Shown: positions 14,142 to 32,000, numbered from the stretch's first letter. The stretch is DNA of 32,000 bases from Nanobdella aerobiophila (GCF_023169545.1 NZ_AP019769.1:120001-152000), one strand, 5' to 3'. Numbers and translations: made by a program. The notes: generated by a model not told the origin, from the letters alone.

Positions 14142-14747
14142 ATGAATATATCAAAAAACATTCAAGAGTCTTTTAATTTATATAAGAATAATATAATGAC
14201 GAGCATTGCTTTAGGATTCCTTCTTTTCTTAATAAACTTATTAAATTCTATACCAATAATAGGTACATTTATATATTCATATTTATATCCAAGAATATTA
14301 AAATATTATTATGAGAAATTAACTAAAGAAAAATTAGATTCAAAACTAAATATATCCTTTATATCCATATTTATTCCAAATTTATTAATAGGTATAGAGG
14401 TAATATTTTCTTTATTATTTATAATTTTCAAAAATTATGTATTTTTATATATAGCATTTTTATTAATTGTTGCAGGTATCATATTATATGTACTATCTTT
14501 ATATACAATTTTTGGTTCTATATTAGGAAAGGTTGATAAATATAAATTTTATATTAAAAATTCATTTTCTATCTTTGTAAATCTTTTGGTTATAGGTATA
14601 ATATTGTTTTCAATATATATCTTAATAGCAATTTTATCATATTTTATATCATTACTATTGGCAATTATATTGGATATAGGATTTTCTATATTAATCTTAT
14701 TACCTTTATTAAATGTAGTTTTGATTACAAGTACTAAAAATTTATAA
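14142..14747 (+). CDS. Polytopic membrane protein (paralog A)
   Basis: This is a 201-codon hydrophobic ORF. It shares an identical 43-residue block, 'IPIIGTFIYSYLYPRILKYYYEKLTKEKLDSKLNISFISIFIP', with the next gene. Confidence 0.6.
   Translation: MNISKNIQESFNLYKNNIMTSIALGFLLFLINLLNSIPIIGTFIYSYLYPRILKYYYEKLTKEKLDSKLNISFISIFIPNLLIGIEVIFSLLFIIFKNYVFLYIAFLLIVAGIILYVLSLYTIFGSILGKVDKYKFYIKNSFSIFVNLLVIGIILFSIYILIAILSYFISLLLAIILDIGFSILILLPLLNVVLITSTKNL
14246..14378 (+). repeat. 133-nt near-identical segment, copy A (partner at 14875..15007)
   Basis: Direct comparison by eye found only 3 mismatches (gag/gaa, tta/cta, tcc/tct), all synonymous. The flanking coding sequence is strongly diverged. Confidence 0.85.
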
Positions 14748-14770
14748 TAAATTAAATAGATATATTTTTT

Positions 14771-15454
14771 ATGAACTTTGTAAATAATTTAAAGGCATCT
14801 TTTTTGTTATATAAAAGAAATATATTATTTGGATTCTTATATGGTATAATTAAATCTTTATTATATATTATATTTTCTATACCAATAATAGGTACATTTA
14901 TATATTCATATTTATATCCAAGAATATTAAAATATTATTATGAAAAATTAACTAAAGAAAAACTAGATTCAAAACTAAATATATCCTTTATATCTATATT
15001 TATTCCATCAATAATACAAAATATATTGATATTTAGTTCTATATTTATATCTTCATATTTCTATTTATCTATATTATCTCTTGACTATTTAAATAATAAG
15101 TTAGTATATATAAACAGTCCATTAAATTTATCCTTTTATAACTTTATATTACCTGTAGTAGTATCCTTTATAATATTTTATGGAATTACATATATAATGT
15201 ATATATTTTCTATGAATTCTTTCTATGGTTCAATATTGGGGAAAGTGAATAAATATAATTTAGAAATAAATAATTCTTCTAAAATATTTTTTAATATACT
15301 TACATTATTTTTGATATCTATGTTTATATTATTTTTCTTATCTTCAATAATAATTCTTAATAAATATCTAATATTAATACCAATATTAATATTTATATTG
15401 TTAATAGTGCCTTTATTGGATATTATTGGTTTAGTATCTTTTGATAGTAAATAA
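14771..15454 (+). CDS. Polytopic membrane protein (paralog B)
   Basis: This is a 227-codon hydrophobic ORF. It shares the identical 43-residue block and a second conserved patch ('GSILGKVNKYN' against 'GSILGKVDKYK') with paralog A. Confidence 0.6.
   Translation: MNFVNNLKASFLLYKRNILFGFLYGIIKSLLYIIFSIPIIGTFIYSYLYPRILKYYYEKLTKEKLDSKLNISFISIFIPSIIQNILIFSSIFISSYFYLSILSLDYLNNKLVYINSPLNLSFYNFILPVVVSFIIFYGITYIMYIFSMNSFYGSILGKVNKYNLEINNSSKIFFNILTLFLISMFILFFLSSIIILNKYLILIPILIFILLIVPLLDIIGLVSFDSK
14875..15007 (+). repeat. 133-nt near-identical segment, copy B (partner at 14246..14378)
   Basis: The offset of 629 nt is constant across the block. See copy A. Confidence 0.85.
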
Positions 15455-15527
15455 TTATCTATTAGTGGTAATCAATTTTAATCAATATAACAAAATTTTA
15501 TAAATATTGTTGATATATCATTATTTC

Positions 15528-18500
15528 ATGGAAAAGCATTCGAAAGGTAAGAATAGATATAAGTCTTTTATGATGAGAGGTAAGACAATATCAGCTATAG
15601 GAGCAATGGCAGCATTAGGACTGGCAATATATTCGCAATCTGGACAACCAACAATAGGTCAATTAGCACAAGCAATGAAAGCACAACCATCTGCATGGAC
15701 AGTAGTAGTAGGAGCAAATGCAAAGGCATCTGATGTTGTAGGAGCTTCTAATATAGTTGCAGCATTAGAGACCTTCACATCTGTACCAACAAATATGACA
15801 ACAAATCAATCTAATTTACAAGTACAAATACAAGGAACAATTCCTGTAATACAAAATTCATATCCATTATATTATCCATCAGAACCATTATACTTGGGAT
15901 ATAATTTAAATAGTGTAGTAAATGTATTATCTGTAGGTTCAGGTACATTCCAAACAAATTACAATGGACAACAAACTACATATCAATATAATGCATATGT
16001 ATATCCATCAAATCAATATTCTATACAATATATAGAACCAACACCAGGACAAAGTCAACCAGTTGTATCATTAGCAGCAACTGGTCCAACAGCAAGTCCA
16101 ATTTCATTAAACTTAACATTCTCACCATCCTTAAACTTAACTCAATTAACACAATCTCCACAAGCAATTAATATATTTAATACAACATATTATATGGTCC
16201 CAGCATCCAATGGTCAATATATTAACTTTGTTCCAGCTGCAGATGTAGTAACATTAAATGTAAATCAATCAACAACCTTTAATGGTGTACAGATAACATT
16301 ACAAGGTGTAACAGCACAATACTCTGCAGGTTCTACAACTTCAACTGGTGTACCATCAGCAGTATTAAATATAAATGGTCGAACTGTAACTGTACAAGTA
16401 GGTTCACAAGAATATGTAGATGGAATTAATGTATTAGTTGTAAATGTATATGGTCCATTATCAAATGAAGTTACTACAACACAACAAGGTTATGTAGAGT
16501 TAGTATTGGGTAATTCTGGATATCAATTACCAATAACTTCAACACCAGCAAATGTACAAACATCAAGTGGACAAGTATTAAATAATGTACAAGTACAGAT
16601 GACATATACAACATCTGGAAATGGTTATTTGATATCAGATATAGCATTCTTATTCCCACAATTGCCAGAGATTGGAACTTCAGGATATTATGGATTAACA
16701 AACGGAGCAGTATATCAATTACCATTATTTAATTATGAATTAACATTCCCATCTGTTACATTACCAGCAAAGAATTCTGATTTAATACAAGTGCAATCTT
16801 CATTAGTAACTCAAGGCAGTAATAGCTATGCAAATCAATTTACATTATCATATCCAGATGCATTATCAGGTAAGACATATACATTAAGTATATATAATAA
16901 TGATCCTTCATCACCATCTAACGGTGTGTTACAAGCATTCCAGCAAGGATATGTACAGAGTTTAAAAGAATATACTAATTCATTGACAACAAGTACTACA
17001 TCTACATATCAATCTGCTGCATTAACACCAACAGTAGGAACAGTTATATCCATTACTAATACTAGTTCTGTTACATCTTATTATTATATTGCAAATGTAT
17101 CATCAAGTAATGTTATTTTAGTAGGTTTACAAACAGGACAAGTTTATAATGTAAATTCTGGGGGTGCAACATTAAGTGATGGTGTAAGTGTAAAATATAG
17201 TGGCGGTACATTAACATTTAATTCACCAAATGGTCAATACTTTACTAGTCAAACATTTACTGCAGGTACTAATTATAATTATCCATATTATGCAGGTCAA
17301 TTAACACCAGGAAGTCAAACAAGTGCATTTGTATTATATCCAGGACAATACTTCGCAGTATATAATCCAACAACACAAACGTCAGAAATATTCTATTTAC
17401 AAGATGTGACTACAGGAACAAATAATGTACCACAAGCTACAATAGAAGATGTAATAACAGGACAAACATATACAGTAAGTCAAGGAAATCCAATAGTTGT
17501 AGATAATGGTATATCTTTAGATCCAATAATAATAAATACACAAGTACCATATGTTATATTGCAGGGAAGTGGAACTATATCAATGAATAGGTTAGTATTA
17601 ACATCAATGGGTACAAGTCCACAATCAACACCAATGATAAGTATAACAGGTTTGGGTACACCAACGGTAAATATAGGAGTTCAAGATACGTACCCCGGAT
17701 ATACATTAGTAAATGGATCAACACTAGGTACATCTGTTAGCCTAACATTAGGTGTAACTGGAGGTTTAGCAAATCCAACATTTGACTATACAAACCCAAC
17801 TTCAACATCTGTAACATCCGGATCTACAACAACAACATATTATTTAGATAAAGCAGGAACATATAGCGTATATACATCATCAACAGGAGCACAAACATTA
17901 TCACTATATGTACCAATGGTACCTGTATCATATGCAGTATCTATAGCTCCAGTAGGCTCACAGTCGCAACAAGAATCTGTAAATGTAGGTATAGGACAAA
18001 TAATACCAGGAACATCATTAACAGTTGAAGGAGTAACAGGAGCGTCATCAACAACAACAACTTACTCAGCACCACAAGCATTAATAGGAAATGTAATATT
18101 AACAAGTCAGGTAAATGCAAATAATATGAATAATATGGTATTAGTAGGCGGTCCAGCAGTAAATACATTAACAGCACAAGCAGTTATAAATTGGGTATCA
18201 TCTGAAAATTCAACATTAGGATCAGAATTGCAATCATTGGCATCTTCACAAGGTGGATTAATATATGGTTCACAATTAGCACCAGTATTACAACAATTAG
18301 GAATAACATTTGAACCAGGAACAGCATTAGTATTCACATCAACATTAGCACCAAATTCATTGGTAATATTTGGATGGTATGGTAATGATACAACAGAAGC
18401 AACACAAGTATTTGCAAACTATCTAGTTAGTGGTGTAGATTCATCAGTATTTAATAATGCAACATTAGTATGGATAAATGATCAGCAAACATCTGTATCC

Positions 18501-18530
18501 GGTCAACCAACAGTACAAGCAATACAATAA
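15528..18530 (+). CDS. S-layer / major surface glycoprotein candidate
   Basis: It has a signal-peptide-like 'MMRGKTISAIGAMAALGLAIYS'. The N-terminal 'WTVVVGANAKASDVVGASNIVAAL' and C-terminal 'NMVLVGGPAVNTLTAQ' resemble the conserved ends of euryarchaeal S-layer proteins (S_layer_N/S_layer_C type). The protein is about 1000 aa, T/S/Q/N/G/V-rich, has no Cys and very few K/R/E, and carries many N-x-S/T sequons. ATG 15528 is preferred to the track's TTG at 15507; ATG 15570 is also possible. Confidence 0.8.
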   Translation: MEKHSKGKNRYKSFMMRGKTISAIGAMAALGLAIYSQSGQPTIGQLAQAMKAQPSAWTVVVGANAKASDVVGASNIVAALETFTSVPTNMTTNQSNLQVQIQGTIPVIQNSYPLYYPSEPLYLGYNLNSVVNVLSVGSGTFQTNYNGQQTTYQYNAYVYPSNQYSIQYIEPTPGQSQPVVSLAATGPTASPISLNLTFSPSLNLTQLTQSPQAINIFNTTYYMVPASNGQYINFVPAADVVTLNVNQSTTFNGVQITLQGVTAQYSAGSTTSTGVPSAVLNINGRTVTVQVGSQEYVDGINVLVVNVYGPLSNEVTTTQQGYVELVLGNSGYQLPITSTPANVQTSSGQVLNNVQVQMTYTTSGNGYLISDIAFLFPQLPEIGTSGYYGLTNGAVYQLPLFNYELTFPSVTLPAKNSDLIQVQSSLVTQGSNSYANQFTLSYPDALSGKTYTLSIYNNDPSSPSNGVLQAFQQGYVQSLKEYTNSLTTSTTSTYQSAALTPTVGTVISITNTSSVTSYYYIANVSSSNVILVGLQTGQVYNVNSGGATLSDGVSVKYSGGTLTFNSPNGQYFTSQTFTAGTNYNYPYYAGQLTPGSQTSAFVLYPGQYFAVYNPTTQTSEIFYLQDVTTGTNNVPQATIEDVITGQTYTVSQGNPIVVDNGISLDPIIINTQVPYVILQGSGTISMNRLVLTSMGTSPQSTPMISITGLGTPTVNIGVQDTYPGYTLVNGSTLGTSVSLTLGVTGGLANPTFDYTNPTSTSVTSGSTTTTYYLDKAGTYSVYTSSTGAQTLSLYVPMVPVSYAVSIAPVGSQSQQESVNVGIGQIIPGTSLTVEGVTGASSTTTTYSAPQALIGNVILTSQVNANNMNNMVLVGGPAVNTLTAQAVINWVSSENSTLGSELQSLASSQGGLIYGSQLAPVLQQLGITFEPGTALVFTSTLAPNSLVIFGWYGNDTTEATQVFANYLVSGVDSSVFNNATLVWINDQQTSVSGQPTVQAIQ

Positions 18531-19651: not shown

Positions 19652-20194
19652 TTTAAATAAAAAATACTTTTCAGGTAAATTAACACCTTTTTTATTAAAT
19701 TTTTTTAATGTACTATATTTTTTTTTAATTTTCTTTAAAGTATCTTTTTCTTGTTTATCTTCTTTTGATAATTTATGATATATTTTATTTAGATTATTTA
19801 TATATACTTTTTCTTTTTTATCTTCCGGATCATTATACTGGTTTAATTGCTTTAATAACATTTTTAAATATTTTATCATATTTTCTATATCTTTTTCTTC
19901 ATATTCGATATTTTTCTCAGATTGAATAATGTCTCTTTCCAATATATTTAGTTCATTTATCATTCTTGGATCTTGTTTCTTTAATTCTACATTATATCTT
20001 TTCATTTCTGATTTTATTCTATCTTTATATTTTTTTATCATTTCAAATTGCTGCCTTATTTGTCTAAATCTATTAGATAGTTGTAGATTAAGTTTCTTGT
20101 AATATTGTATTTTTTTAGGATTGATTTTTATATTCCTGCTTCCCTTTTTAAAAATCTTTGGTATATTTATTCTCATATTTAGTTCTAACCCCAT
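19646..20194 (-). CDS. Lys/Glu-rich coiled-coil hypothetical protein
   Basis: The track ORF (to 20242) runs into the tRNA-Val gene. Its first 10-16 codons are the reverse translation of the tRNA, so an internal Met (20194 or 20176) is the more plausible start. No recognisable family was found. Confidence 0.45.
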   Translation of the reverse strand: MGLELNMRINIPKIFKKGSRNIKINPKKIQYYKKLNLQLSNRFRQIRQQFEMIKKYKDRIKSEMKRYNVELKKQDPRMINELNILERDIIQSEKNIEYEEKDIENMIKYLKMLLKQLNQYNDPEDKKEKVYINNLNKIYHKLSKEDKQEKDTLKKIKKKYSTLKKFNKKGVNLPEKYFLFKL

Positions 20195-20211
20195 TTTTAA
20201 ATATAAATTTT

Positions 20212-20284
20212 TGGGACCGCGGGGATTCGAACCCCGGACCACTGCCTAGTCAGGGCAGCATCATAGCCACTAGACTACGGTCCC
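20212..20284 (-). tRNA. tRNA-Val (anticodon GAC), intron-less, no encoded CCA
   Basis: Folded by hand. The acceptor is GGGACCG/CGGTCCC (7 bp) and the D-arm is GTCT-AGTGGCTA-TGAT. The anticodon stem is CTGCC/GGCAG with loop CT-GAC-TA. The variable loop is TGGTC, and the T-arm is CGGGG-TTCGAAT-CCCCG. The discriminator is A and is followed by A, A. Confidence 0.93.
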
Positions 20285-20297
20285 TATCAAAAATAAT

Positions 20298-20705: not shown

Positions 20706-22058
20706 ATGTATAATTTTATGATGAAAGAAACATATATAAAAGATATTTTAAAAGAAGATTTAGTTGGAAAGGAAGTTTCTATAAAAGGTTGGGTTTATAG
20801 AATGAGAGATATGAAGGATAAGGTATTTTTCGTAATAAGAGATCCTACAGGCATAATACAAGCAGTTGTAAAAAAAGATAATGTTAATGAGAATATATGG
20901 AATGATGCCCTAAAGTTTCAAATTGAGGGATCTCTAGAATTGAAAGGAATATTAAAAAAAGATGAGAGGGCACCTACTGGGTACGAAATAGAAGTAAAGG
21001 ATATAAAAGTATATGATTATGGGCAACCATTTCCATTAAAGGGAGATGAAGAGATAGATACTATACAAAAATATAGACATTTATGGATAAGAACAAAGTG
21101 GTTTGTAGATATATTAAAAGTAAAACACAGTTTGTTAAAAAATTTAAGAGAGTGGTATATAAATGATGGATGGTATGAGGTGCAACCACCAATCTTAGTT
21201 GGTAATGCGGCAGAAAATACGACAGAATTATTTGAAGTAAAATACTTTGATCAAAAAGCTTATTTATCGCAATCTGCACAATTATATTTAGAAGCATTGA
21301 TATTTTCTCTGGGGAAAGTATATTCTTTAACACCATCGTTTAGAGCAGAATTTTCTAGAACGAAAAGACATTTACATGAATATTGGCATTTTGAAATTGA
21401 GGCTGCTTGGTATCATTTAGAAGATCTAATAAAAGCAGTAGAAGAATCATTAAAATATTCTATAGAAAAGACAATAGAAGAGAGAAAATCAGAATTTGAA
21501 GATTTAAAAAGTATAACTGGTAGAGATATTAAAGAATTAAAAGATTTTGTGGAAAAACCATGGAAAATATTAAAATATGAAGATGGAATTAAAAAATTAA
21601 AAGATTTAGGCATAAATATAAGATACGGAGACGATCTGGGATCTGATGAGGAAAGAATATTAACTCAGCAATTTGATGTACCAATATTCTTGACATATTA
21701 TCCAAGAGAAGTAAAAGCATTTTATATGTATGAGAATGGTGATGGAACAGTAAAAAATTTTGATCTATTAGCACCGGAAGGATATGGAGAAATTATTGGT
21801 GGATCTGAAAGAGAATGGAGATATAATATTTTGGATCAAAAAATAAAAGAGTGGAAATTAGATTCATTAAAGATAGAAGTTGGCAATGAAGAAATTGATG
21901 CATATGAATGGTATAAAGATTTAAGAAGATATGGTTCAGTACCACATTCAGGGATGGGACTCGGTCTAGAAAGATTTACAAGATGGATATGCAAAATGGA
22001 TCATATAAGAGATACCTTGGCATTCCCAAGATTAAGAGGAGGCTGGCTATATCCATAA
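20706..22058 (+). CDS. asnS: Asparaginyl-tRNA synthetase (class IIb)
   Basis: It is collinear with archaeal AsnRS: 'AYLSQSAQLYLEALIF', motif 2 'SLTPSFRAEFSRTKRHLHEYWHFEIEAAW', 'LAPEGYGEIIGGSERE', 'YEWYKDLRRYGSVPHSGMGLGLER' and 'FPR..LYP'. The start may be Met5/Met6 (20718/20721). Confidence 0.93.
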   Translation: MYNFMMKETYIKDILKEDLVGKEVSIKGWVYRMRDMKDKVFFVIRDPTGIIQAVVKKDNVNENIWNDALKFQIEGSLELKGILKKDERAPTGYEIEVKDIKVYDYGQPFPLKGDEEIDTIQKYRHLWIRTKWFVDILKVKHSLLKNLREWYINDGWYEVQPPILVGNAAENTTELFEVKYFDQKAYLSQSAQLYLEALIFSLGKVYSLTPSFRAEFSRTKRHLHEYWHFEIEAAWYHLEDLIKAVEESLKYSIEKTIEERKSEFEDLKSITGRDIKELKDFVEKPWKILKYEDGIKKLKDLGINIRYGDDLGSDEERILTQQFDVPIFLTYYPREVKAFYMYENGDGTVKNFDLLAPEGYGEIIGGSEREWRYNILDQKIKEWKLDSLKIEVGNEEIDAYEWYKDLRRYGSVPHSGMGLGLERFTRWICKMDHIRDTLAFPRLRGGWLYP

Positions 22059-22090
22059 GTTTTTAAATATTCTTTATATTTTTATTATAT

Positions 22091-22474
22091 ATGGGTAGCT
22101 ATTCAAAAGATGAACTGAAGATATATATTGATATAGATGTTGTAAAAGGAAAGGAATTAAATGAACTTTTAGAATATATACTTAATAGTTATAAACCATT
22201 AGATGAAGTAAATAAAAGTTTATTTAATCAGTTTAATAAATATAAAGGTTCTGTAGATTATATCGTAGAGAATATTAATAGGCTAGAGGTAACTGCAGGT
22301 ATCTATAAATTAGAGTGTAGTAAGCTTTTTAGAGATCATTCATTAGACTATTATAAGTGCTATTTTAAAGTTAGTGGAGGGAAAACTCTCGATTCAAAAT
22401 GGATAAAAGCAGGTTCTTTATCTTCGCTGTTAGAAACATATATTAAGGAACTGAAATCTATTTATAACCAGTAA
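22091..22474 (+). CDS. Hypothetical protein
   Basis: This is a 127-codon ORF with a convergent 17-nt overlap with the next gene. No recognisable motif was found. Confidence 0.45.
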   Translation: MGSYSKDELKIYIDIDVVKGKELNELLEYILNSYKPLDEVNKSLFNQFNKYKGSVDYIVENINRLEVTAGIYKLECSKLFRDHSLDYYKCYFKVSGGKTLDSKWIKAGSLSSLLETYIKELKSIYNQ

Positions 22475-23111
22475 ATATCTCTATAAATATATTTTTTATA
22501 TTATTTTCTTTCAACATCCTAAGCATAGATATAGAAAAGTTGGTGGATCCACATATATAGAAATCATAAGAATCTAGATTATTAATATATTTTTTTAATA
22601 ATTCCATGTTTATATGGCTGTTTTCATAGTTATCTACCTTTTCTCTTGTTATAGTTAATATCAGATCTATCTTTGATTTTTTTAGTTCATCTAAATATAC
22701 TGCATCTTTAAAATATTTTACAGAATAGAATAATTTTATATTATAATCTAAATTGTTTTTTACAATATATCTTATATCTGATAAAAATGGTGCAATACCT
22801 ATCCCGCCTGCAATCATTACTATATTTTTATTCTTTTTTAATGATAGATTACCGCCATATGGACCTTCAATATATACAAGATCTCCTTCTTTTAAATTTC
22901 TCATATTTTTCTTGTAATCACTCTCAGATAAAGTAGAAATTATAGATATACAATTATCAGTAGGTATGGAAATTATAGAAAATTCCCTAAGTTCATTATT
23001 TATATATAACCTTATGAACTGTCCCGGTATAAAGTCTATTACCTTTTCGAATCCCAATTCTATAATATTATCATTTAGTAATTTTTTGTATATTACTTTA
23101 GCCTCTTTCAT
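22458..23111 (-). CDS. FNR-like FAD/NAD(P)-binding oxidoreductase (ferredoxin reductase-type; no Fe-S cysteine cluster seen)
   Basis: The FAD-binding region 'PGQFIRLYI...REFSIIS' contains the R-x-[YF]-S motif, and the NAD(P)-binding region is 'IVMIAGGIGIAPFLS'. The internal Met at 23111 ('MKEAKVIYKK..') fits family N-termini better than the track start at 23171. Confidence 0.7.
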   Translation of the reverse strand: MKEAKVIYKKLLNDNIIELGFEKVIDFIPGQFIRLYINNELREFSIISIPTDNCISIISTLSESDYKKNMRNLKEGDLVYIEGPYGGNLSLKKNKNIVMIAGGIGIAPFLSDIRYIVKNNLDYNIKLFYSVKYFKDAVYLDELKKSKIDLILTITREKVDNYENSHINMELLKKYINNLDSYDFYICGSTNFSISMLRMLKENNIKNIFIEIFTGYK

Positions 23112-23373
23112 AAAAATTCTATATTTTATAAAAGCTTTATATTTTTTATAGAAGGATTGGAATATATGCAAAGACTTTTGAGAATTACATTAGTATAGAC
23201 ACCTTTTCAGCATTTTCTAGAGTAATATTAAATTTAACATTTATATAGAGAACTTTACTACTGTTTTAAATGTAAATAATTTTTTATTATATAATTTTTA
23301 TTGATATTTTAGTTTATATCTTTATATAGTGATTATTAAATATATAGAAATTTATAAAAAATGTTTACTGTGA

Positions 23374-23399
23374 TGTACAAAAATTAATATTTTTGTACA
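23374..23399. promoter_or_regulatory. Perfect palindrome TGTACAAAAAT-TAAT-ATTTTTGTACA just upstream of the first ATPase remnant
   Basis: The 11-bp arms and 4-nt centre were read directly from the sequence. The palindrome ends 9 nt before GTG 23409. It is a candidate operator or hairpin. Confidence 0.35.
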
Positions 23400-23408
23400 C
23401 TATATTAT

Positions 23409-23666
23409 GTGAACATAACTGAAATACTGATACTGATAAGACAAAAGAATGAATTAAATTATATTTATTCACAAGAATTATTAGATAGAGAATATCATAT
23501 TGATATAAATACAGATATTATAAAAGTAATAACTGGCATTAGAAGATCTGGTAAAAGTACTTTAGCATTATTATCATTAAAAGATAAAAATTTTGGATAT
23601 ATAAATTTTGATGAAAGAGAGCTATTAAATTTTAATTTAACAGATATAGAAAATCTTATTTTTTGA
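23409..23666 (+). pseudogene. N-terminal remnant (85 codons) of a Walker-A ATPase of the AAA_14/DUF4143 (COG1373-like) family
   Basis: It has a GTG start and the Walker A motif 'GIRRSGKST'. It is collinear with residues 1-90 of the intact copy at 25601. It stops before the expected Walker B (DEIQ), and downstream sequence does not continue the protein in any frame I could read. Confidence 0.7.
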
Positions 23667-24130
23667 TGGAATACATATCCTAGATGCCCCGGGGTTCTGC
23701 TTTGGAGGTTGAAAAGGTATGTGGTAATAATATAGATGATGGAAACAATTTATATCCTGTTTTTTAAGATTATATAATTATTTGAAAGATTTTCCTGCTA
23801 TTAAAATAAACTATAGATCAGAAAGTGTATTTAATAAATATAATATCAGGTTATTGTTCGGTTTTAAATATAATGGTTCTAATATTTATTAACTTTAATT
23901 ATATCATATAAATATTTTAATTATATATTTTTTTTAGGATCGATAAATATCAATGTGCTAATTTTTATATCCATTGTTTCTACATAGTATTATTAGAATA
24001 AATCCTTTTTTCAATGCCAAATTAAATAATATCTTTGGATTAAACTCTTTAATAGTAAAATTCCTTATAAAATTATAATTTATAAATATCTTTGGATTAT
24101 AAATCCAGATCATTTATAAATAGTTATTGA

Positions 24131-25303
24131 ATACAATTCTATATAGGTATACTAAAAGATATAACTTATGATTATGTAAATTCATCAAAATATATAAAAG
24201 AAATAAAAAGGAATATAGAAATAAAAGAATCCTTAGATATAATCGCATTAATAGGACCTAGAAGAGTAGGAAAGACAACAATTATGCTAAAAAAAAAAGA
24301 ATTATTAGAAAATGATGAACAGGCTATTTATGTTTCTTTCGATAATCTATATTTATTCAATTTAGATATAAGGAAATTTGCCTAGATGATAAGATCTGAA
24401 TATCCAGAAGGAAAAGTATATTTATTTTTAGATGAGATTCAAGAGTGGAAGAATTGGGATTATAATATAAGGTGGTTGCATGATGTAAAGGACTTTTTCC
24501 TATATATATCCGGGTCTTCTTCTACTCTTCAGTCTTCTGAAATTCCAACAAAATTAAGGGGAAGATATATTTCAAAAATTATTTTTCCAATATCCTTTAA
24601 AGAACTTATAAATTTTGAAGTAGAAGATTTTAGGCATATTGGAAAGATATACAATTTATTAGAAGAATATATAAGATGGGGAGGATTTCCGGAACTAATA
24701 TTATATAAAGATATTGAGAAATTAAATTCTTTATTAGAAACAGTATTTTATAGAGATATAATTGAAAGAAATAAAATAAGAAATATTGATGTATTCAGGA
24801 TAATATCTAGATTTATTTTATCTAATTATTCAAATACTTTTACATATAATTCATTAAAAAATTATTTGAGGTCTTTTAATATAAATATAGATGTAAAAAC
24901 AATAATAAAGTACATTGAGGCTATGAGAAAATATTTTTTATTATTTACTTTAGAGAGGTTTTCATACTCAGAAAAGAAAAAGTTGATTTCTCCCAAAAAA
25001 ATATATTTAATTGATACTTCTTTTACAAGTATATTTAATCAAGGAGAAGATATCGGAAGAAAAATGGAAAATATTGTTTTTATTGAGCTATTAAGAAGAG
25101 AAAATTATTTACCAGAAGAAAATATTTTAATAGAAGTAACTTATAGTATAGATAAAGAACATGAGAAAAAAGTATTGAGTGCTATGTATGAATTAAAATG
25201 TAAAAATAGTATAATAATTACTTGGGATTATGAGGATAATAAAACAATAAACAATTTAAATATTAAATTTATTCCTTTATGGAAATGGCTACTAAATTTA
25301 TGA
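24131..25303 (+). pseudogene. Disrupted AAA_14/DUF4143-type ATPase copy (no usable start, in-frame TAG, internal deletion)
   Basis: One frame reads '..IALIGPRRVGKTTIMLKKKELLENDEQAIYVSFDNLYLFNLDIRKFA-TAG-MIRSEYPEGKVYLFLDEIQEWKNW..'. There is no ATG/GTG/TTG between the upstream stop (24128-24130) and codon 24284. The TAG lies at 24383-24385. The C-terminal domain lacks the block corresponding to 'IDNIYYFHTNEGYEIDFLIKEGNN' of the intact copy. Confidence 0.75.
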
Positions 25304-25600
25304 GTATATTTAAGCTATGAAAATAATAAAAATAACCAGATAGGCAATAAAATTTATTTTTAGTTATAGTGAATTTTATTCCATCAAAATCCTTTAATAT
25401 ACTTATAATTCATTTCTAAAATTTCCAGGCTGTTCATTATAATTATTTTACTCTTATATATAATACAAAACTATAATATAATTAATTTGATCCGTATATG
25501 GAAGGGAGATTCATTAAATTAATCCTATTGGGATTAAAAAATTCATAAAAATTGTTCCTTTAAGACACAATTTATATAACTTTTAATTAAATAATATATT

Positions 25601-26842
25601 ATGATCGAAGATTATCTAATAGGTGTAAAAAGAGAAATTAATGAATTAAATATATATCCTAGAGAATTAGAAATAGATGTTGAATACCCTATTGCAATTA
25701 TAGGTCCAAGAAGATCTGGTAAAAGTTTTTATTTATACTATTTAATAAAAAAATTAAATTTAAAAGAAGATGATTATTTATTTGTAAATTTCGAAGAATA
25801 CGAAATAAAAAATGTAAATTTTTTAGATATAATAAATAAACATATAGAAATATATAAGAAAGAACCTAAATACATTTTTTTAGATGAAATACAAAATTTA
25901 AATAATTGGCAGGATTTTTTATATTCATTAGTAGAGAGGAAAAAATATAAAATAATTATAACAGGTTCTTCATCAAAATTATTATCGAAAGAAGTTGCAA
26001 CAAATTTAAGGGGTAGATTCATTAGTAAAATATTATTACCATTATCATTTAGAGAATATTTATCATTCAAAAAAGTAAATATAATAAGACCTTTATACGA
26101 TAAAGAAATATCAAAAATTAAAGGATATTTATATGATTATTTAAAAAATGGGGGATTTCCCGATATTATATTAGAGAAAGTTAATAAAAAAGAATTTATA
26201 AAGGAATATATAGATATATTATTATATAAAGATTTTATTGAAAGATATAAAATTGAAAATATTGAAGTTGCAAGATTTTTGTTATACGCATTAATCCAAT
26301 CTAATAGTAAAATTTTATCAGTAAATAAAATTTATAATCAATTAAAGCAAATAACTAGAGTCAGTAATAAAACAGTAAGGAAATATATTTATTTATTTCC
26401 TGAAACTTTATCCATATTTTTATTAAAAAAATTTTCTTATTCTATTAAGAAAACATACTTGTCGCAACCAAAGATATATTTATCAGATATATCTTTAGAT
26501 CAAGAAGAGAATGGTATTGGTAGAAAAATGGAAAATATAGTATTCTTAGAGTTTATTAGACAAAATTTAATTGATAATATTTATTACTTTCATACAAATG
26601 AGGGATATGAAATAGACTTTTTAATTAAAGAAGGAAATAATATAAAACAATTAATACAAGTATCATATATTAATAATTATGATGAAATAGATAAAAGAGA
26701 AATAAGATCATTATTAAAAGGATATAATTTATTTAATAAACCAGAATTATTAATTATAACTTGGGATTATGAGGACACAAAAATTATAGATAATGTAAAT
26801 ATTAAATTTATACCTTTATATAAGTGGTTATTAAATATATAA
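25601..26842 (+). CDS. AAA_14/DUF4143-type ATPase (COG1373-like), apparently intact
   Basis: Walker A is 'GPRRSGKSF' and Walker B is 'YIFLDEIQ'. 'ITGSSSKLLSKEVATNLRGR' also matches the family. The C-terminal restriction-endonuclease-like region is 'GYEIDFLIKEG..IKQLIQVSY', ending 'IITWDYEDTKIIDNVNIKFIPLYKWLLNI'. Confidence 0.88.
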   Translation: MIEDYLIGVKREINELNIYPRELEIDVEYPIAIIGPRRSGKSFYLYYLIKKLNLKEDDYLFVNFEEYEIKNVNFLDIINKHIEIYKKEPKYIFLDEIQNLNNWQDFLYSLVERKKYKIIITGSSSKLLSKEVATNLRGRFISKILLPLSFREYLSFKKVNIIRPLYDKEISKIKGYLYDYLKNGGFPDIILEKVNKKEFIKEYIDILLYKDFIERYKIENIEVARFLLYALIQSNSKILSVNKIYNQLKQITRVSNKTVRKYIYLFPETLSIFLLKKFSYSIKKTYLSQPKIYLSDISLDQEENGIGRKMENIVFLEFIRQNLIDNIYYFHTNEGYEIDFLIKEGNNIKQLIQVSYINNYDEIDKREIRSLLKGYNLFNKPELLIITWDYEDTKIIDNVNIKFIPLYKWLLNI

Positions 26843-27116
26843 TAATTTTGATAAATTTAATATCTCTAAAGCTCATATTGAAATAAAAAATTATGAGAAT
26901 TGAATCAAAAAACTTTTTTGAACAAGCTATGACTTGAAAAAATTCACCAAAAGTTATCGCTATATTAGGTATATAATAAAGAAGCAATAGAGTTAAAAGA
27001 ATGGATAAAAGAGTAATTGAGATAAAAGATAAAATTAAAGAAAAACTAGAAGATTTCTAATCATGTATGTTTATAAATGAAAGGTTTCTTATGCTGTAAA
27101 AGAAGATATAGAGATA

Positions 27117-28091
27117 TTATAAATTCTCTTTAAACTCTTTTGCAGTTTCTTCAGGAATTGAAGATATTATATATTCTAGGTGTCCGATTTCCATATATCC
27201 TATATCAAATAAAGGCCTTTGTAATAATCTAATTATAGGGAAGGTTCTAGAGTCTTTTAGATATGTAGTATCAAATATAACCATATTAAAGTTTTCATAT
27301 AATCTTTCATAAGTTACTAAAATATTATATAATTCTTCAATAAACTTTTCTAGATTATTTTCTGATAAGAAGTATATACCAAATGATTCTAAGTAGCCTA
27401 ATAATTCATTATTTCTAAATGGTGCAAAAGAAGCCCATAATTTTATTATATCATCCATAATTATTCTTTGATTTAGTTTTTTTTCAAAATTAAAATAATC
27501 CTCTATAAAAAATTTTTTATATTTTTCAAAATATTTCTGAGATTTATTTAGATAGGTTTTAAAATAATTTGTTGGTTCCTTTTCCAATAATATTTGTAGA
27601 TGTAAATGTTCTTGTGATGCACCTGCTGAAAATCCTTTATTCATATTTATAAATATATATTTATATTCCTTTTCCGGTACTTTTTCATAAAATTCTTTTA
27701 TTAATAGAAAAGAATTATATAGATCTAGTTTATTCAATTTTGCTATATTTTTTATATGTTTTTTGTAATTTGGTACCAGTACAGCATGATATCTACCATA
27801 TGGATATTTATTAGAAAATAATATTGAATCTCCTAAACTAATTTTTTCCATAAATTCAAAATCCGGGGTATTCTTATATGGATCGCAAAAATAACAGATA
27901 TTATTTTTTTTACTTATATTTTTATAATTTCTAGGTTTATATTTTATAGATTTATTTATTCTAATTTTATAATTTGTAATAGGATCATATCTTTCTTCTA
28001 TTATATATCTTTCAATATTGTTATTAAAAAAATTTCTTGATTCATATTCATAGCTTATTAATTTTAAATCCTCGTTAAATACTTCTTCCAT
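27117..28091 (-). CDS. GalT-like nucleotidyltransferase/phosphorylase (galactose-1-phosphate uridylyltransferase family, HIT superfamily)
   Basis: 'RYDPITNYKIRINKSIKYKP' and the zinc-site-like 'CYFCDP' match the family, as do 'ILFSNKYPYGRYHAVLVPNYKKH' and 'FINMNKGFSAGASQEHLHLQIL' (H-x-H-x-Q active site). Confidence 0.8.
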   Translation of the reverse strand: MEEVFNEDLKLISYEYESRNFFNNNIERYIIEERYDPITNYKIRINKSIKYKPRNYKNISKKNNICYFCDPYKNTPDFEFMEKISLGDSILFSNKYPYGRYHAVLVPNYKKHIKNIAKLNKLDLYNSFLLIKEFYEKVPEKEYKYIFINMNKGFSAGASQEHLHLQILLEKEPTNYFKTYLNKSQKYFEKYKKFFIEDYFNFEKKLNQRIIMDDIIKLWASFAPFRNNELLGYLESFGIYFLSENNLEKFIEELYNILVTYERLYENFNMVIFDTTYLKDSRTFPIIRLLQRPLFDIGYMEIGHLEYIISSIPEETAKEFKENL

Positions 28092-28492
28092 ATATTGCTA
28101 ATACATTTAAATATTTATAATTTCTTTTATTTTATTATCTAGATTTTTATTATTTAAATCATCATATAAATATATTTCAAAATTTTATATTATCTTTCTG
28201 ATATATTTCTATAGTATATTTTCCATCTGAACAAAGAGGTATTTTAAGTTCTGATATATAAATAGGTAATTTAAAATATTCTATAGGCTTTGTTAAATAC
28301 TCTTTATCATTAGATGCTTATTTTATGTATTTAAAATTATTTTTTTACACATAGATAAGTATAATTATTTTAAAATATATGTATCTACTTTATCTAATTT
28401 TTTAGCAAAATTTAATCTTATATGATATTTTTTAATAAAATGATCTAATACTACTCATTATCAAGTACTAAAAAAGTATCTATTAATTTTAT

Positions 28493-28948
28493 TTATATAA
28501 TCTTTAATTCTTTTAGATGATCTTTATGCCTTTTTAATGTTGTATTTATTAAATTTAATCTTTCATGTATTCCCCTTAGATCTTTATTATTTCTTATATC
28601 TATATTTCCAGATTTTGCTCTTTGAACAAAATCTTGTAGTATATATAAACTTTCATTTAGATATTTGTCGAATATTTCAACATCTTGTTTTAATCTAGGA
28701 TCATCAATTCTTCTTAATAATTCAAAATATTCTCTTAATATTTTTAAATCTTCTTCCTCTAATTTTTTATCCTTCATTATTAACTTTACAATTATTGCAG
28801 GTTCTCTCTTTGAATTATCTTTCTTCATCTCTTTATTTATCTGCTCATAAATTTCATCTATCCTTTTTATTGAGTTTTCTATTTTTTTATATTCTTCTTT
28901 TATCTTTAAACTTGTAGCATCTCTCTTCTTATTAAAGAATGATACCAT
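28493..28948 (-). CDS. Coiled-coil hypothetical protein
   Basis: This is a 151-codon K/E/R-rich ORF with heptad-like composition. No recognisable catalytic motif was found. Confidence 0.45.
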   Translation of the reverse strand: MVSFFNKKRDATSLKIKEEYKKIENSIKRIDEIYEQINKEMKKDNSKREPAIIVKLIMKDKKLEEEDLKILREYFELLRRIDDPRLKQDVEIFDKYLNESLYILQDFVQRAKSGNIDIRNNKDLRGIHERLNLINTTLKRHKDHLKELKII

Positions 28949-29814
28949 ATATTTCTATAAGTTCTTTGTTATATATAAATTAAATCTTGATCTATAGTAT
29001 TAATGGTTATTTAATAATCTAGTATTGTTGAGATCATATCCTATAATGCTGTTTATATCTACCGATAAATAGTTTATAAACTTTGAGGTTTGAGCTAAAT
29101 AGAGTATTAGATAATATAAGTCCTTCAATAAATATCATCCATTTTTTATTTTTAGGTAAAAATTTATATTTAGTTGCATTATTAATAATTTTATCTAAAG
29201 ATTTTATTATTTTAAAATGTATTATTTTAACTTTATAAATAATATTAAACGAATCTTAATTTATTTTTTATTTCTTTTTTATTTAAAATGAACTATTAAA
29301 TTTTATATTTTTTGTATTATTTACAGGAAGGATTATATTCTTAAAGATATTGGAAAATATTATATTTGCAATCATTATGATCTCAATATATACAATTATG
29401 CTAGTTATGAATAGGCTATAACCATGGAACTTTCAAGATAGATCATTTTATCTCCAGAAAATAATTTAATACTATCAAAACCAAAGAATATACTTCAATA
29501 ATAAATATATATCTAAATATTGTTTCTTCTTTACTGCCTGTAGATATTTTACCTTTTAAATGAAATATATCCTATAATTAGAAAAGTATCAGAAAAGTAA
29601 GACAAGAGAATCATCGTCCAAAAAATATTGTTCTGCGAAGAGAATATGTTTTAAATGATTTATACAAAACTTTTTTTACTATCGAATTTCTTTTAAATAT
29701 AATTTTATCTAGAATCCAGATGGATAATTAATCGTTATTTAATTCCTTTTAATGAAATTTTTTAGAATATTTTAAATTATATAATTTAAAAATTTCAAAA
29801 TTTATTAATTATTT

Positions 29815-30057
29815 ATGATTACTACAATTACAATATCAAAAGAAATAAAAGAAGAAGTAGAAAAGGTTAAAGGAAATAAAAAATGGGACGAATTTTTAAT
29901 GGAGTTGATTAACATTTATAAAGAATATAAAAAAGAGAAAATAAAAAATTTATTAAATGAAGTTAAAAAAGATATAAATAATGAAGAACTAGATAAAATA
30001 GAACAAGAAATATTACAGTTAAGAAGAAATAATAATTTTAGGGATTATAAAATATGA
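29815..30057 (+). CDS. vapB: VapB-like antitoxin candidate
   Basis: The N-terminus 'MITTITISKEIKEEVEKVKGNKKWDEFLMELI' resembles small archaeal antitoxins ('TITISDEVYEKL..KG..SFSEVI'). There is a 4-nt ATGA overlap with the downstream PIN gene. Confidence 0.6.
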   Translation: MITTITISKEIKEEVEKVKGNKKWDEFLMELINIYKEYKKEKIKNLLNEVKKDINNEELDKIEQEILQLRRNNNFRDYKI

Positions 30058-30419
30058 ATATACTTGATACATCTTTTCTAATTGAATTAATAAGAAATAA
30101 TAATTTGCAAGATTATATTGATAATTATATATCTATAATAACATTGGAGGAGATTTTAAGAGCATTAGATAAAAATAAAAGACAAAAGATTAAAGAATTA
30201 TTAACAAATGCATTAAGTATAATTAATATAGATCAGGAAATAGTTGAAATTTATTCAGATATATTTTATACATTAAAAAATAATGGAAAAATTAAAAATG
30301 ATGCAGATATTATCATTTCTGCTACTGCAATTAAATATAATACAGAAATATTGACAAAAGATAAAGATTTTATAGATATAAAAGAATATTATCCAGAATT
30401 AAAAGTTAAAATTATTTAA
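30054..30419 (+). CDS. vapC: PIN-domain ribonuclease toxin (VapC)
   Basis: 'MNILDTSFLIEL' carries the first acidic residue, 'TLEEIL' follows, and 'NDADIIISATAIKYNTEILTKDKDF' carries the third and fourth. The length is 121 aa. Confidence 0.85.
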   Translation: MNILDTSFLIELIRNNNLQDYIDNYISIITLEEILRALDKNKRQKIKELLTNALSIINIDQEIVEIYSDIFYTLKNNGKIKNDADIIISATAIKYNTEILTKDKDFIDIKEYYPELKVKII

Positions 30420-30624
30420 TAACATTTCTATATTTGTGAATAAAATGATTTTAAAAAATTAGGGAATTTTTTATTTTCATGTAAAAATTATATTGGTAAT
30501 TTTTTATATATTCTAAAAGAGAATAAATATATGTAAATCTTATATATTATATTGGAGACTTTAATACAGTAAAAAAGTTAGAAGGAAAAGAAAGAAATAT
30601 AATATCAAAATAATTTAAAAATAG

Positions 30625-31857
30625 TTATATTTTTACTAAATTTATTATATCATTTACATCTAATACTTCAATATTTTCTGGATAATATTCTAGATTATTT
30701 TTATTAGGTAATATTAATATCTTTCTACAATTAAATTTATTTAATTTATTTTCTATTTCTTTTATCTCATTTTTATCAATATAATCTTTCCATTTTACTT
30801 CTCCCACAATTTTTAATTCTTTAAATTTAAATAATGAAATATCTATTTCATAATTTTTTTCAACTATCTTATAATAATTTAATCCATAAATCTTTGATAA
30901 TAAGGAATTAAAGAAATATTCAACATGGAATGGTATTTTATCATTTACTACTTCTTTTATTATTTCATAGACTATATCATTTTCCGATATTCCATATTTA
31001 CCTTCTAAATAAAAATATATATCTAATAATGGAGAAGAAATTATATAATAATCAAATTTTTTATTAAATACATTTATTTTATTTATTAAACCAATATTTT
31101 GTAATATTTTTAGATAACTTTGTATTATACTTGGATCATCTTTTTCAATTATTTTCTTAGAAAATAAATATGAAGATATTTCAGTAGATTTATTTTTTCC
31201 AGATGCAATTGATGTTAAAATATTGATATATGTTTTATTTAATTCTCTTTCTTCTTCATTAAATATTTCTCCTATTAAACTTTCAAATGTATACTTATTT
31301 TCTTTAAATATTCTTGCTAATTCTTCTCTTATATTTCCTTTTACAAAATCTATTATCCATGGTTCTCTAAAATATATTGCTTTTTCTATTAATTCTTTTC
31401 CATTTTCTTTATCTATTAAATATTTTATTATATCTCTTTCATCAATTAAATCTATTCTAAATTCTTCAAACAATCCTAATAGTGGTGAATGCTTTTCTAA
31501 AATTTTTTTAGATAAAAATAATGTAGAAGTAATTAATATAAGATTTATTTTTTCATAATTCGCATGTATAAAATCTAACAAATCTTCTTGTAATCTTTGA
31601 AATTCATCTATAACAACTTTTTTTCTAGATAATAAAATATCTTTTAAATAATCATATGATATATCCTTATTATTTATTATATCTATTATTCCTCCATCTC
31701 TTTTTATAAAGAAATAATAATCATAATTTGTAAAGTTTTTAATAAAAAAAGATTTACCAGTTTTTCTTCTTCCATAAACGAAAACTCTATTACCAATTTT
31801 TTCCCATCTTTTTAGATCTTCATATCTAATAACTATATTCATCATATGTATAATCAT
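30625..31857 (-). CDS. Archaeal ATPase (Arch_ATPase/ATPase_2 type, COG1672-like) with a C-terminal DUF234-type nuclease-like domain
   Basis: Walker A is 'VYGRRKTGKSFF' and Walker B is 'VVIDEFQRL'. The C-terminal 'YEIDISLFKFKELKIVGEVKWKD' has the canonical D...E-x-K arrangement. The start may be Met5/Met6. Confidence 0.85.
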   Translation of the reverse strand: MIIHMMNIVIRYEDLKRWEKIGNRVFVYGRRKTGKSFFIKNFTNYDYYFFIKRDGGIIDIINNKDISYDYLKDILLSRKKVVIDEFQRLQEDLLDFIHANYEKINLILITSTLFLSKKILEKHSPLLGLFEEFRIDLIDERDIIKYLIDKENGKELIEKAIYFREPWIIDFVKGNIREELARIFKENKYTFESLIGEIFNEEERELNKTYINILTSIASGKNKSTEISSYLFSKKIIEKDDPSIIQSYLKILQNIGLINKINVFNKKFDYYIISSPLLDIYFYLEGKYGISENDIVYEIIKEVVNDKIPFHVEYFFNSLLSKIYGLNYYKIVEKNYEIDISLFKFKELKIVGEVKWKDYIDKNEIKEIENKLNKFNCRKILILPNKNNLEYYPENIEVLDVNDIINLVKI

Positions 31858-32000
31858 GGTTATACATTTTATAAATATAATTCATTATTATGGAATTATA
31901 AAAGATAAATTATACTAGATTTTTATAAAATAAGTATAGCTCTTCTGTTAGATGATTTATTAATAATTTTAAATAGATTAGAATTATTAGTTTTTAATAA

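Follow-up and report, generated by a model that had tools for sequence, protein, structure and literature searches.

We analysed a 32,000-nucleotide (nt) window of the 0.67-Mb chromosome of Nanobdella aerobiophila MJ1 (GCF_023169545.1, NZ_AP019769.1:120001–152000; positions are counted from the window's first letter). The window has a GC content of ~22% and its archaeal proteins include a histone, an S-layer protein, RpoK, an exosome subunit and pilin-like proteins. We propose, with a probability of roughly 65%, that the part from 22059 to ~1.2 kb past the window end is a gene-turnover part of the chromosome, in which single-gene accessory units were repeatedly inserted and then lost around a core gene for a HIT enzyme. 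The accessory units would comprise a tandem array of COG1373 genes (PDC-S01), a VapBC pair, a STAND/Orc-like ATPase-nuclease (ATPase410) and two orphan genes. The excess of DNA free of open reading frames (ORFs) would in part be demonstrable gene debris, the rest being AT-rich spacer that goes with genes transcribed singly, acquired or in decay. An initial annotation of the sequence had described 23172–31857 as a loosely packed defence or conflict island, maintained and eroded at the same time.

The variable slot downstream of AspRS

Related loci were fetched from species-representative genomes with AspRS and, for 61 metagenomic loci, with the HIT-like protein, giving ~70 Nanopusillaceae loci in all. 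In tblastn maps the backbone order S-layer gene, Rrp41/42, RpoK, a variable slot, AcylP and AspRS was conserved, and AspRS itself was 82–84% identical in Nanopusillus, Nanobsidianus and YN1. The slot after AspRS spans 1.1–3.7 kb in the relatives against 5.06 kb in Nanobdella and leads to the HIT-like gene, past which gene content differs again. Gene presence and absence thus vary between related genomes beside conserved flanks, the pattern expected of a defence island. The initial annotation had proposed synteny as a check for a variable region with a conserved flank, and the syntenic block up to AspRS supports this division; its border was misplaced, as the variable zone starts at 22059, directly 3' of AspRS, rather than at 23172. 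The features of the zone and its anchor are as follows.

20706–22058, plus strand: AspRS (Pfam tRNA-synt_2, E=2e-67), last gene of the conserved backbone and anchor of the variable slot
22091–22474, plus strand: hyp127, a lineage-specific ORF with no Pfam or NCBIfam match
22458–23171, minus strand: FNR-like FAD/NAD(P)-binding oxidoreductase (Pfam NAD_binding_1, E=1e-11)
23308–23359, plus strand: probable 3' scrap of a fourth COG1373 copy, reading ...KWLLNI-stop (TGG to TGA)
23409–23666, plus strand: COG1373 fragment A, the N-terminal 85 codons only, including Walker A GIRRSGKS
23658–23746: GC-rich patch of 89 nt, peaking at 48% GC within ORF-free DNA of 16% GC, just after COG1373 stub A
24131–25303, plus strand: COG1373 pseudogene B; copy C residues 31–413 align in one frame to 24242–25300
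25304–25600: ORF-free spacer separating COG1373 copy B from copy C
25601–26842, plus strand: COG1373 gene C, intact (AAA_14 ATPase and DUF4143; PADLOC candidate PDC-S01)
26843–27116: ORF-free DNA between the convergent COG1373 copy C and GalT-like gene, 21.9% GC, coding-like composition
27117–28091, minus strand: GalT-branch HIT enzyme of ~325 residues, a core gene embedded in the variable region
28092–28492: spacer upstream of the GalT-like gene, 401 nt, 15% GC, composition like that of a genuine intergenic or promoter region
28493–28948, minus strand: CC151 (MJ1_0175), an orphan, highly charged protein (43% K/R/E/D)
28949–29814: largest ORF-free interval, between the divergent CC151 and vapB genes, 866 nt, 18.5% GC
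29815–30057, plus strand: putative VapB-type antitoxin (Pfam VAPB_antitox, 27.8 bits; cut-off 27.9)
30054–30419, plus strand: VapC PIN-domain toxin, apparently intact (Pfam PIN, E=5.5e-14, 53.3 bits; cut-off 23.6)
30420–30624: spacer between the convergent vapC and ATPase410 genes, 15% GC
30625–31857, minus strand: ATPase410, an AAA+/STAND-Orc-like ATPase with a helical domain, a winged helix and a C-terminal PD-(D/E)xK domain

Among the relatives, YN1 is the only one with an FNR-like gene at the same position (65% identity), adjoining AspRS, and it carries one COG1373 gene next to HIT, 51% identical to copy C and in the opposite orientation. A COG1373 gene also lies directly 3' of AspRS in a Nanopusillaceae metagenome-assembled genome (MAG; L008, 29–32% identity). 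COG1373 genes are found in the AspRS-downstream slot of three lineages, Nanobdella, YN1 and KM4331-16, with a mutual identity of only 29–51%. In a Nanopusillus MAG (L003), VapC and a genuine ATPase_2+DUF234 protein are encoded at most 10 kb from AspRS. The 61 metagenomic HIT loci contained VapC-like genes twice and not a single relative of hyp127, FNR, COG1373, CC151, VapB or ATPase410; hyp127 was absent from all related loci compared. Loose packing is a weaker trend in the relatives, where 16–22% of the DNA downstream of AspRS is ORF-free vs 6–11% upstream, and Nanobdella is the extreme.

The AspRS–HIT slot of Nanopusillus and Nanobsidianus has a different occupant. It holds a DUF7337-like gene for 143 residues and one to four tandem copies of a ~210-residue family without assigned function, whose N-terminal region reads roughly MSD...L..L...YSFxLGxWG (L003 11869–12531, L006 11865–14823, and the equivalents in L009, L004 and L002). 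A relationship between hyp127 and these Nanopusillus paralogues was considered, and the two proved unrelated. A second variable slot lies between RpoK and AcylP, which are ~1.0 to 3.6 kb apart across the relatives. In the window this slot (19652–20297) contains hyp198 and tRNA-Val(GAC), the hyp198 ORF as listed overlapping the tRNA by 31 nt.

The COG1373 array and the ORF-free DNA

COG1373 copy C matches Pfam AAA_14 with 123.1 bits (gathering score 27) and DUF4143, a domain classed as PD-(D/E)xK (PMC3424549), with 66.1 bits (gathering score 28.1). It has the Walker A motif GPRRSGKS and the Walker B motif FLDEIQ, and it matches the PADLOC PDC-S01 model PDLC04787 over residues 29–412 of 413 (E=3e-85). 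In a 2026 survey, PDC-S01 was the fourth most common candidate system across prokaryotes, archaea-enriched and unvalidated, and DPANN archaea were enriched in single-gene candidates (PMC12988326). Calling these genes uncharacterised modules, as the initial annotation did, thus overstates the novelty of COG1373, which is already catalogued as a candidate. Copy C resembles other PDC-S01 members in its full-length model match, both Pfam domains, Walker A and B motifs and single-gene organisation, and in belonging to an archaea-enriched group with frequent plasmid homologues. The window differs in having a tandem array of divergent, mostly decayed paralogues of this candidate family, with a subfamily motif E-x-D...Q-V-(S/T) that lacks the canonical lysine. 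The COG1373 family is large (8383 representatives at 50% identity). Homologues are found on 319 plasmid records; of 50,697 phage records only 19 contain one, and most of these are tiny contigs without annotation. No relatives of copy C or of ATPase410 were found in viral contigs, and no solved structures were found for either type of ATPase.

Three COG1373-like copies had been annotated. Their AAA_14/DUF4143 identity holds, and only one of them is intact. Pseudogene B retains the Walker A motif GPRRVGKTT in frame, has no ATG, GTG or TTG start upstream of it, is interrupted by an in-frame TAG at 24383–24385 and has lost the family-invariant E-x-D-F segment by deletion. Its best relative is P0161 (41%, 259 bits), ahead of copy C (38%, 180 bits). 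Fragment A covers Pfam AAA_14 positions 4–52, aligns to copy C residues 11–79 at 42% identity and has nearest relatives other than those of copies B and C. Copies A, B and C come from different sublineages, each being closer to relatives elsewhere than to the other two, and are not recent duplicates. The scrap at 23308–23359 aligned locally over 54 columns with 26802–26856, at the 3' end of copy C. Of 300 shuffles only 2 reached its score, a weak indication which suggests a fourth COG1373 remnant. The array consists of one living gene, one freshly dead gene and one or two scraps, and here the erosion postulated in the initial annotation is demonstrable.

According to the gene list of this analysis, ORF-free DNA makes up 986 nt (4.3%) of positions 1–23171 vs 2999 nt (34.5%) of 23172–31857. 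The seven gaps of the latter region measure 205–866 nt (median 297), the 21 gaps upstream 3–148 nt (median 32), and the two sets of sizes do not overlap (Mann–Whitney p = 8e-7). Six intervals (23667–24130 and the five listed above) had been annotated as ORF-free, and indeed none contains an ORF of at least 60 residues. They total 2507 nt, or 84% of what is ORF-free in the flagged region and only 61% of what is ORF-free in the window, so that the statement that they hold nearly all of the window's ORF-free DNA was somewhat overstated. Two more gaps lie at 23172–23408 and 24131–24385, the latter being the 5' part of pseudogene B. Past the window end (L111), a further ORF-free gap of 1181 nt is followed by a gene for a 418-residue pilin-like protein and then by tightly packed housekeeping genes.

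Several of the flagged intervals have a GC content of 18.5–22%, nearer to coding DNA than to true upstream spacers (13.6%), which is compatible with old gene debris without proving it; 28092–28492, 30420–30624 and 31858–32000, at 14–15% GC, resemble ordinary spacers. The demonstrable pseudogene sequence in ORF-free DNA amounts to ~255 nt (24131–24385), and ~50 nt more are probably of this kind. No gap remnants beyond the COG1373 pieces were detected by tblastn with all island proteins, by blastn and tblastx, or by blastx against 2033 ORFs of the ~70 related loci, and a six-frame Pfam search of the four biggest gaps gave no signal. The largest interval, 28949–29814, likewise showed no Rfam match, no blastx match to the relatives' ORFs and no Pfam match in six-frame translation. 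At Rfam gathering scores, tRNA-Val (20212–20284) was the only structured RNA of the window, with none in the gaps, and a permissive Rfam scan of 23100–32000 returned one chance microRNA match only. No CRISPR array and no repeat family beyond paralogue similarity was present in the window.

The GC-rich patch at 23658–23746 is the sole 60-nt window of at least 42% GC beyond 22 kb. It has no Rfam match, its folding z-scores of -1.2 to +0.4 are no better than those of shuffled sequence, and neither the window nor the related genome loci L001–L021 yielded a similar sequence (the metagenome loci L050–L110 were outside that DNA search). The patch may be what is left of a conserved coding segment, or it may be a small RNA.

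ATPase410, VapBC and the HIT enzyme

The AlphaFold (AF2) model of ATPase410 has a predicted local distance difference test score (pLDDT) of 91. Residues 1–290 resemble Orc1/Cdc6 and NB-ARC STAND NTPases, with a helical part and then a winged helix after the AAA+ domain. Residues 297–382 form an alpha-beta-beta-beta-alpha-beta unit in which D and ExK are placed as expected for a PD-(D/E)xK fold. The family motifs are GRRxxGK, DE and a C-terminal D339...E353-V-K355-W, with D339 nearly invariant (at least 90% of sequences). Taken with copy C, this supports the initial view of P-loop NTPases fused to PD-(D/E)xK-type domains.

ATPase410 had been labelled a COG1672-like ATPase with DUF234. It gave a weak Pfam match to AAA_14 only, none to PF01637 or PF03008, and no PADLOC match at 1e-3. 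Among 36 family members, weak matches were found to Mrr_cat (7/36), DUF234 (5/36), ATPase_2 (1/36), PDC-S01 (25/36) and PDC-S27 (17/36). ATPase410 is nevertheless homologous to a true COG1672 protein, being 27% identical over 271 residues (E=4e-6) to the genuine ATPase_2+DUF234 protein of the Nanopusillus MAG (L003 19699–21033). Given these weak or absent family matches and this level of identity, ATPase410 is a distant relative of COG1672, PDC-S01 and PDC-S27 and a member of none. It shares with COG1672 (ATPase_2 PF01637 and DUF234 PF03008) and PDC-S27 the P-loop ATPase, the helical/winged-helix part and the C-terminal PD-(D/E)xK domain with D...ExK, but it falls below PF01637 and PF03008, escapes PADLOC and belongs to a separate family of ~410-residue proteins.

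More than 500 homologues with 41–66% identity occur in Nanopusillaceae, Marsarchaeota, Thermoproteota (Thermoproteales), Methanomethylicia, Pyrococcus and others, and none was found on plasmids or in phages. Elsewhere the genes stand alone among housekeeping genes, in many cases with PIN or HEPN/MNT modules a few kb away, and in two other archaea they adjoin genes for DNA glycosylases (UDG, Fapy). The closest homologue outside Nanobdella (64% identity) lies on a 1.9-Mb archaeal metagenome scaffold of 41% GC (L046 5445–8146). It is bracketed by a ~520-nt direct repeat (93–100% identical), through which the 3' part of a histidine-phosphatase (His_Phos_1) gene is duplicated. From this context it appears to be a single-gene cassette of ~2.2 kb that recombination has integrated. 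No direct repeats flank the Nanobdella gene.

Pfam and NCBIfam support the VapBC pair of the initial annotation, with VapB as a putative antitoxin. As in other type II toxin–antitoxin systems, a small upstream gene overlaps the PIN toxin gene, here by 4 nt, and the four acidic residues of VapC, read from the sequence as D5, E32/33, D85 and D103/105, are all present. The pair differs in its scores: VapB narrowly misses the Pfam cut-off, and the NCBIfam VapC match (E=2e-10) does not reach equivalog level. At 29750–29811, directly upstream of the vapB start, lies an AT-rich imperfect palindrome whose 14-nt core (AAATTATATAATTT) is perfect. It may serve toxin–antitoxin autoregulation as an operator or promoter, although chance palindromes are expected at 8% GC.

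CC151 matches only itself among 5.8 billion clusters and has no family match; its base composition, with GC at codon positions one to three in the order GC1>GC2>GC3, follows a coding-like pattern. We considered CC151 as a conserved partner of the HIT enzyme and rejected this. It has no homologues, and neither the DUF7337-like slot protein nor the ORF that lies upstream of HIT in N. acidilobi is related to it. The initial annotation had suggested that the two proteins, as a pair, could belong to an uncharacterised module. This is not supported: CC151 is an orphan, it is absent beside HIT in every relative, and the two genes are separated by the 401-nt spacer of 15% GC.

The GalT/HIT-like identity of the enzyme encoded at 27117–28091 was confirmed by structure search, fold and motifs; its membership of the island was not. 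The gene is intact, 72–79% identical and syntenic in all ~70 related loci, always strand-opposed to AspRS and 1.1–3.7 kb from it, a conservation comparable with that of the core genes for LhrC (72–78%) and AspRS. For this gene, then, the outcome is the one that the initial annotation had named as counting against its hypothesis. Because of this universal conservation and fixed position, it is a core GalT-branch nucleotidyltransferase or phosphorylase gene outside the accessory set. The family is confined to Nanopusillaceae-like archaea, and an alignment of its ~10 known clusters showed C66-x-x-C69, H102, H112 and S159-Q-x-H-x-H-x-Q166 to be invariant.

Pfam and NCBIfam gave only sub-threshold HIT, GalT and Ap4A-phosphorylase matches to this protein, which NCBI names 'galactose-1-phosphate uridylyltransferase-like protein'. 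It failed the equivalog tests for GalT proper (NF008724, 38 vs 448 bits; TIGR00209, 31.9 vs 102.1 bits). A sequence search against solved structures found yeast Apa2 and the Arabidopsis GalT-like ADP-glucose phosphorylase. The AlphaFold (AF2) model has a pLDDT of only 68 and a predicted template modelling score (pTM) of 0.72. In Foldseek it aligned with full-length ADP-glucose phosphorylase (1z84/2h39) at template modelling (TM) scores of 0.64–0.68 and with bacterial and human GalT at 0.57–0.63. The enzyme thus has the two-lobed fold, the HxHxQ nucleotidyl-histidine motif, the N-terminal CxxC and the length of the GalT/ADP-glucose phosphorylase branch (E. coli GalT 1hxp; Arabidopsis At5g18200 1z84/2h39), from which it differs by an identity of only 13–21%, scores far under the GalT equivalog cut-offs and a narrow family. 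A role in sugar-nucleotide metabolism would be in keeping with this kinship.

Several other genes of the window showed features of their own. The 507-residue protein encoded at 12587–14110 contains only the winged-helix and DEAD_assoc C-terminal domains of Lhr helicase, without a helicase core in the ORF. Because its length is the same and its sequence conserved (72–78% identity) in all relatives, it probably derives from a split gene or else is an Lhr C-terminal protein in its own right. The S-layer gene (15507–18530) has 33% GC (GC1 and GC2 43–45%) vs a 22% background and varies widely across the relatives, with 41–74% identity and partly unalignable sequence. Just upstream of it, at 14142–15454, are tandem paralogues of 201 and 227 residues with no family match. 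The relatives have two to three copies (L003, L006, L009 and L010, at ~2.1–4.8 kb) that are 27–46% identical to those of the window; low identity and variable copy number indicate that the family is small and diverges fast. Genes at 27–1640 of the window and at L111 7551–8807, the latter equivalent to ~33–34 kb of the window and just past the variable region, encode large proteins whose signal peptides are of the archaeal class III (pilin-like) type.

Proposed gene turnover and its alternatives

Like archaeal and bacterial defence islands, the region is a variable stretch beside conserved genes that contains toxin–antitoxin and ATPase-nuclease genes and pseudogenes. It differs from them in having no validated defence system, no CRISPR-Cas or restriction–modification system and no integrase or other mobile-element hallmark, and in enclosing a conserved metabolic gene. 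PADLOC reported the PDC-S01 candidate only and, in line with the initial annotation, no known multi-gene defence system in the window; there was no experimentally established defence system either, and Pfam found no methylase or restriction–modification domains. A defence role of the region would rest on the candidate status of its gene families. In such a role, each ATPase-nuclease would act alone, and its C-terminal nuclease would be licensed to attack DNA that is foreign or damaged by NTP binding or hydrolysis together with the DNA-binding helical or winged-helix part. VapC would be a PIN RNase restrained by VapB.

Four points weigh against repeated gain and loss of accessory genes, or against the activity ascribed to them. 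Most of the ORF-free DNA showed no recognisable gene remnant in the blastn/tblastx, blastx and six-frame Pfam searches, so that debris is demonstrated for only ~300 nt. In GC and GC3 the island genes do not leave the core-gene range, so that there is no compositional sign of recent transfer. In a 38-sequence alignment of the COG1373 subfamily, E337, D339 and Q353 are invariant and the E-x-K position reads as an invariant Q-V-(S/T), which makes nuclease activity uncertain. Finally, the comparison covers only 10-kb neighbourhoods, and only those of relatives from other lineages.

The same genes could be selfish or addictive elements, that is, mobile single-gene cassettes and a toxin–antitoxin addiction module in a graveyard tolerated without benefit to the cell. 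Two to three of the four COG1373 copies are dead, their origin from different sublineages implies repeated insertion, COG1373 homologues are common on plasmids, and the repeat-bracketed ATPase410 homologue of L046 resembles a cassette integrated by recombination. However, integrase, transposase and flanking repeats are absent from the window, and copy C and ATPase410 retain all motifs despite strong genome reduction, which suggests selection. As selfishness and defence are compatible with each other, we give this explanation a small but real chance. A housekeeping role in DNA transactions (repair, replication restart or chromatin handling), with loose packing due to individual gene regulation, would suit the Orc1/Cdc6-like AAA+ plus winged-helix architecture of ATPase410, the glycosylase genes beside two of its homologues and a base composition indistinguishable from that of core genes. 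It is at odds with the patchy distribution (absence from ~60 related Nanopusillaceae loci), with multiple divergent paralogues and pseudogenes, with the plasmid-borne members of the family and with decay, which is not expected of a housekeeping gene in a 0.67-Mb genome, and we hold it to be quite improbable.

The initial annotation had also raised the idea of a novel multi-gene defence system made up of the HIT-like enzyme, the putative coiled-coil protein CC151 and the ATPase-nucleases. The genes do lie near one another, and HIT-fold proteins occur in some defence systems, yet here the only PADLOC match of this kind was a weak, non-significant one to ThsC (E=0.0065). Synteny contradicts the idea, as HIT is conserved without such partners in ~70 loci; CC151 is an orphan, the genes are strand-mixed with spacers of 274–866 nt between them, and the fold and motifs of the HIT enzyme are those of GalT/ADP-glucose phosphorylase. 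We consider such a system extremely improbable. We are fairly confident that the region is an ordinary accessory gene-turnover hotspot of known single-gene units, with no new multi-gene system.

A bolder proposal, to which we attach little probability, is that the AspRS-downstream slot is a Nanopusillaceae-wide capture site at which divergent immunity cassettes, each a single ATPase-nuclease gene, are acquired one after another without an integrase. ATPase410 would then represent an uncatalogued, archaea-wide defence family of STAND/Orc-like NTPases with a PD-(D/E)xK domain, moving as a ~2-kb cassette by homologous recombination, as the L046 copy suggests. If so, even a 0.67-Mb ectosymbiont would keep an actively renewed innate-immunity locus.

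The biological surprise of the proposed gene turnover around the HIT gene is modest, because the gene families involved are all of known kinds and the annotated genome has been published before. A practical lesson is that the position of the GalT-like enzyme gives no ground for a defence annotation. In a cultivated, extremely reduced DPANN ectosymbiont, ~10 kb (~1.5% of the genome) would be given over to loosely packed candidate immunity and addiction genes in varied states of decay. This case fits the enrichment of DPANN archaea in compact single-gene candidates (PMC12988326), and the co-culture of N. aerobiophila with Metallosphaera offers a tractable setting for PDC-S01 and the ATPase410 family.

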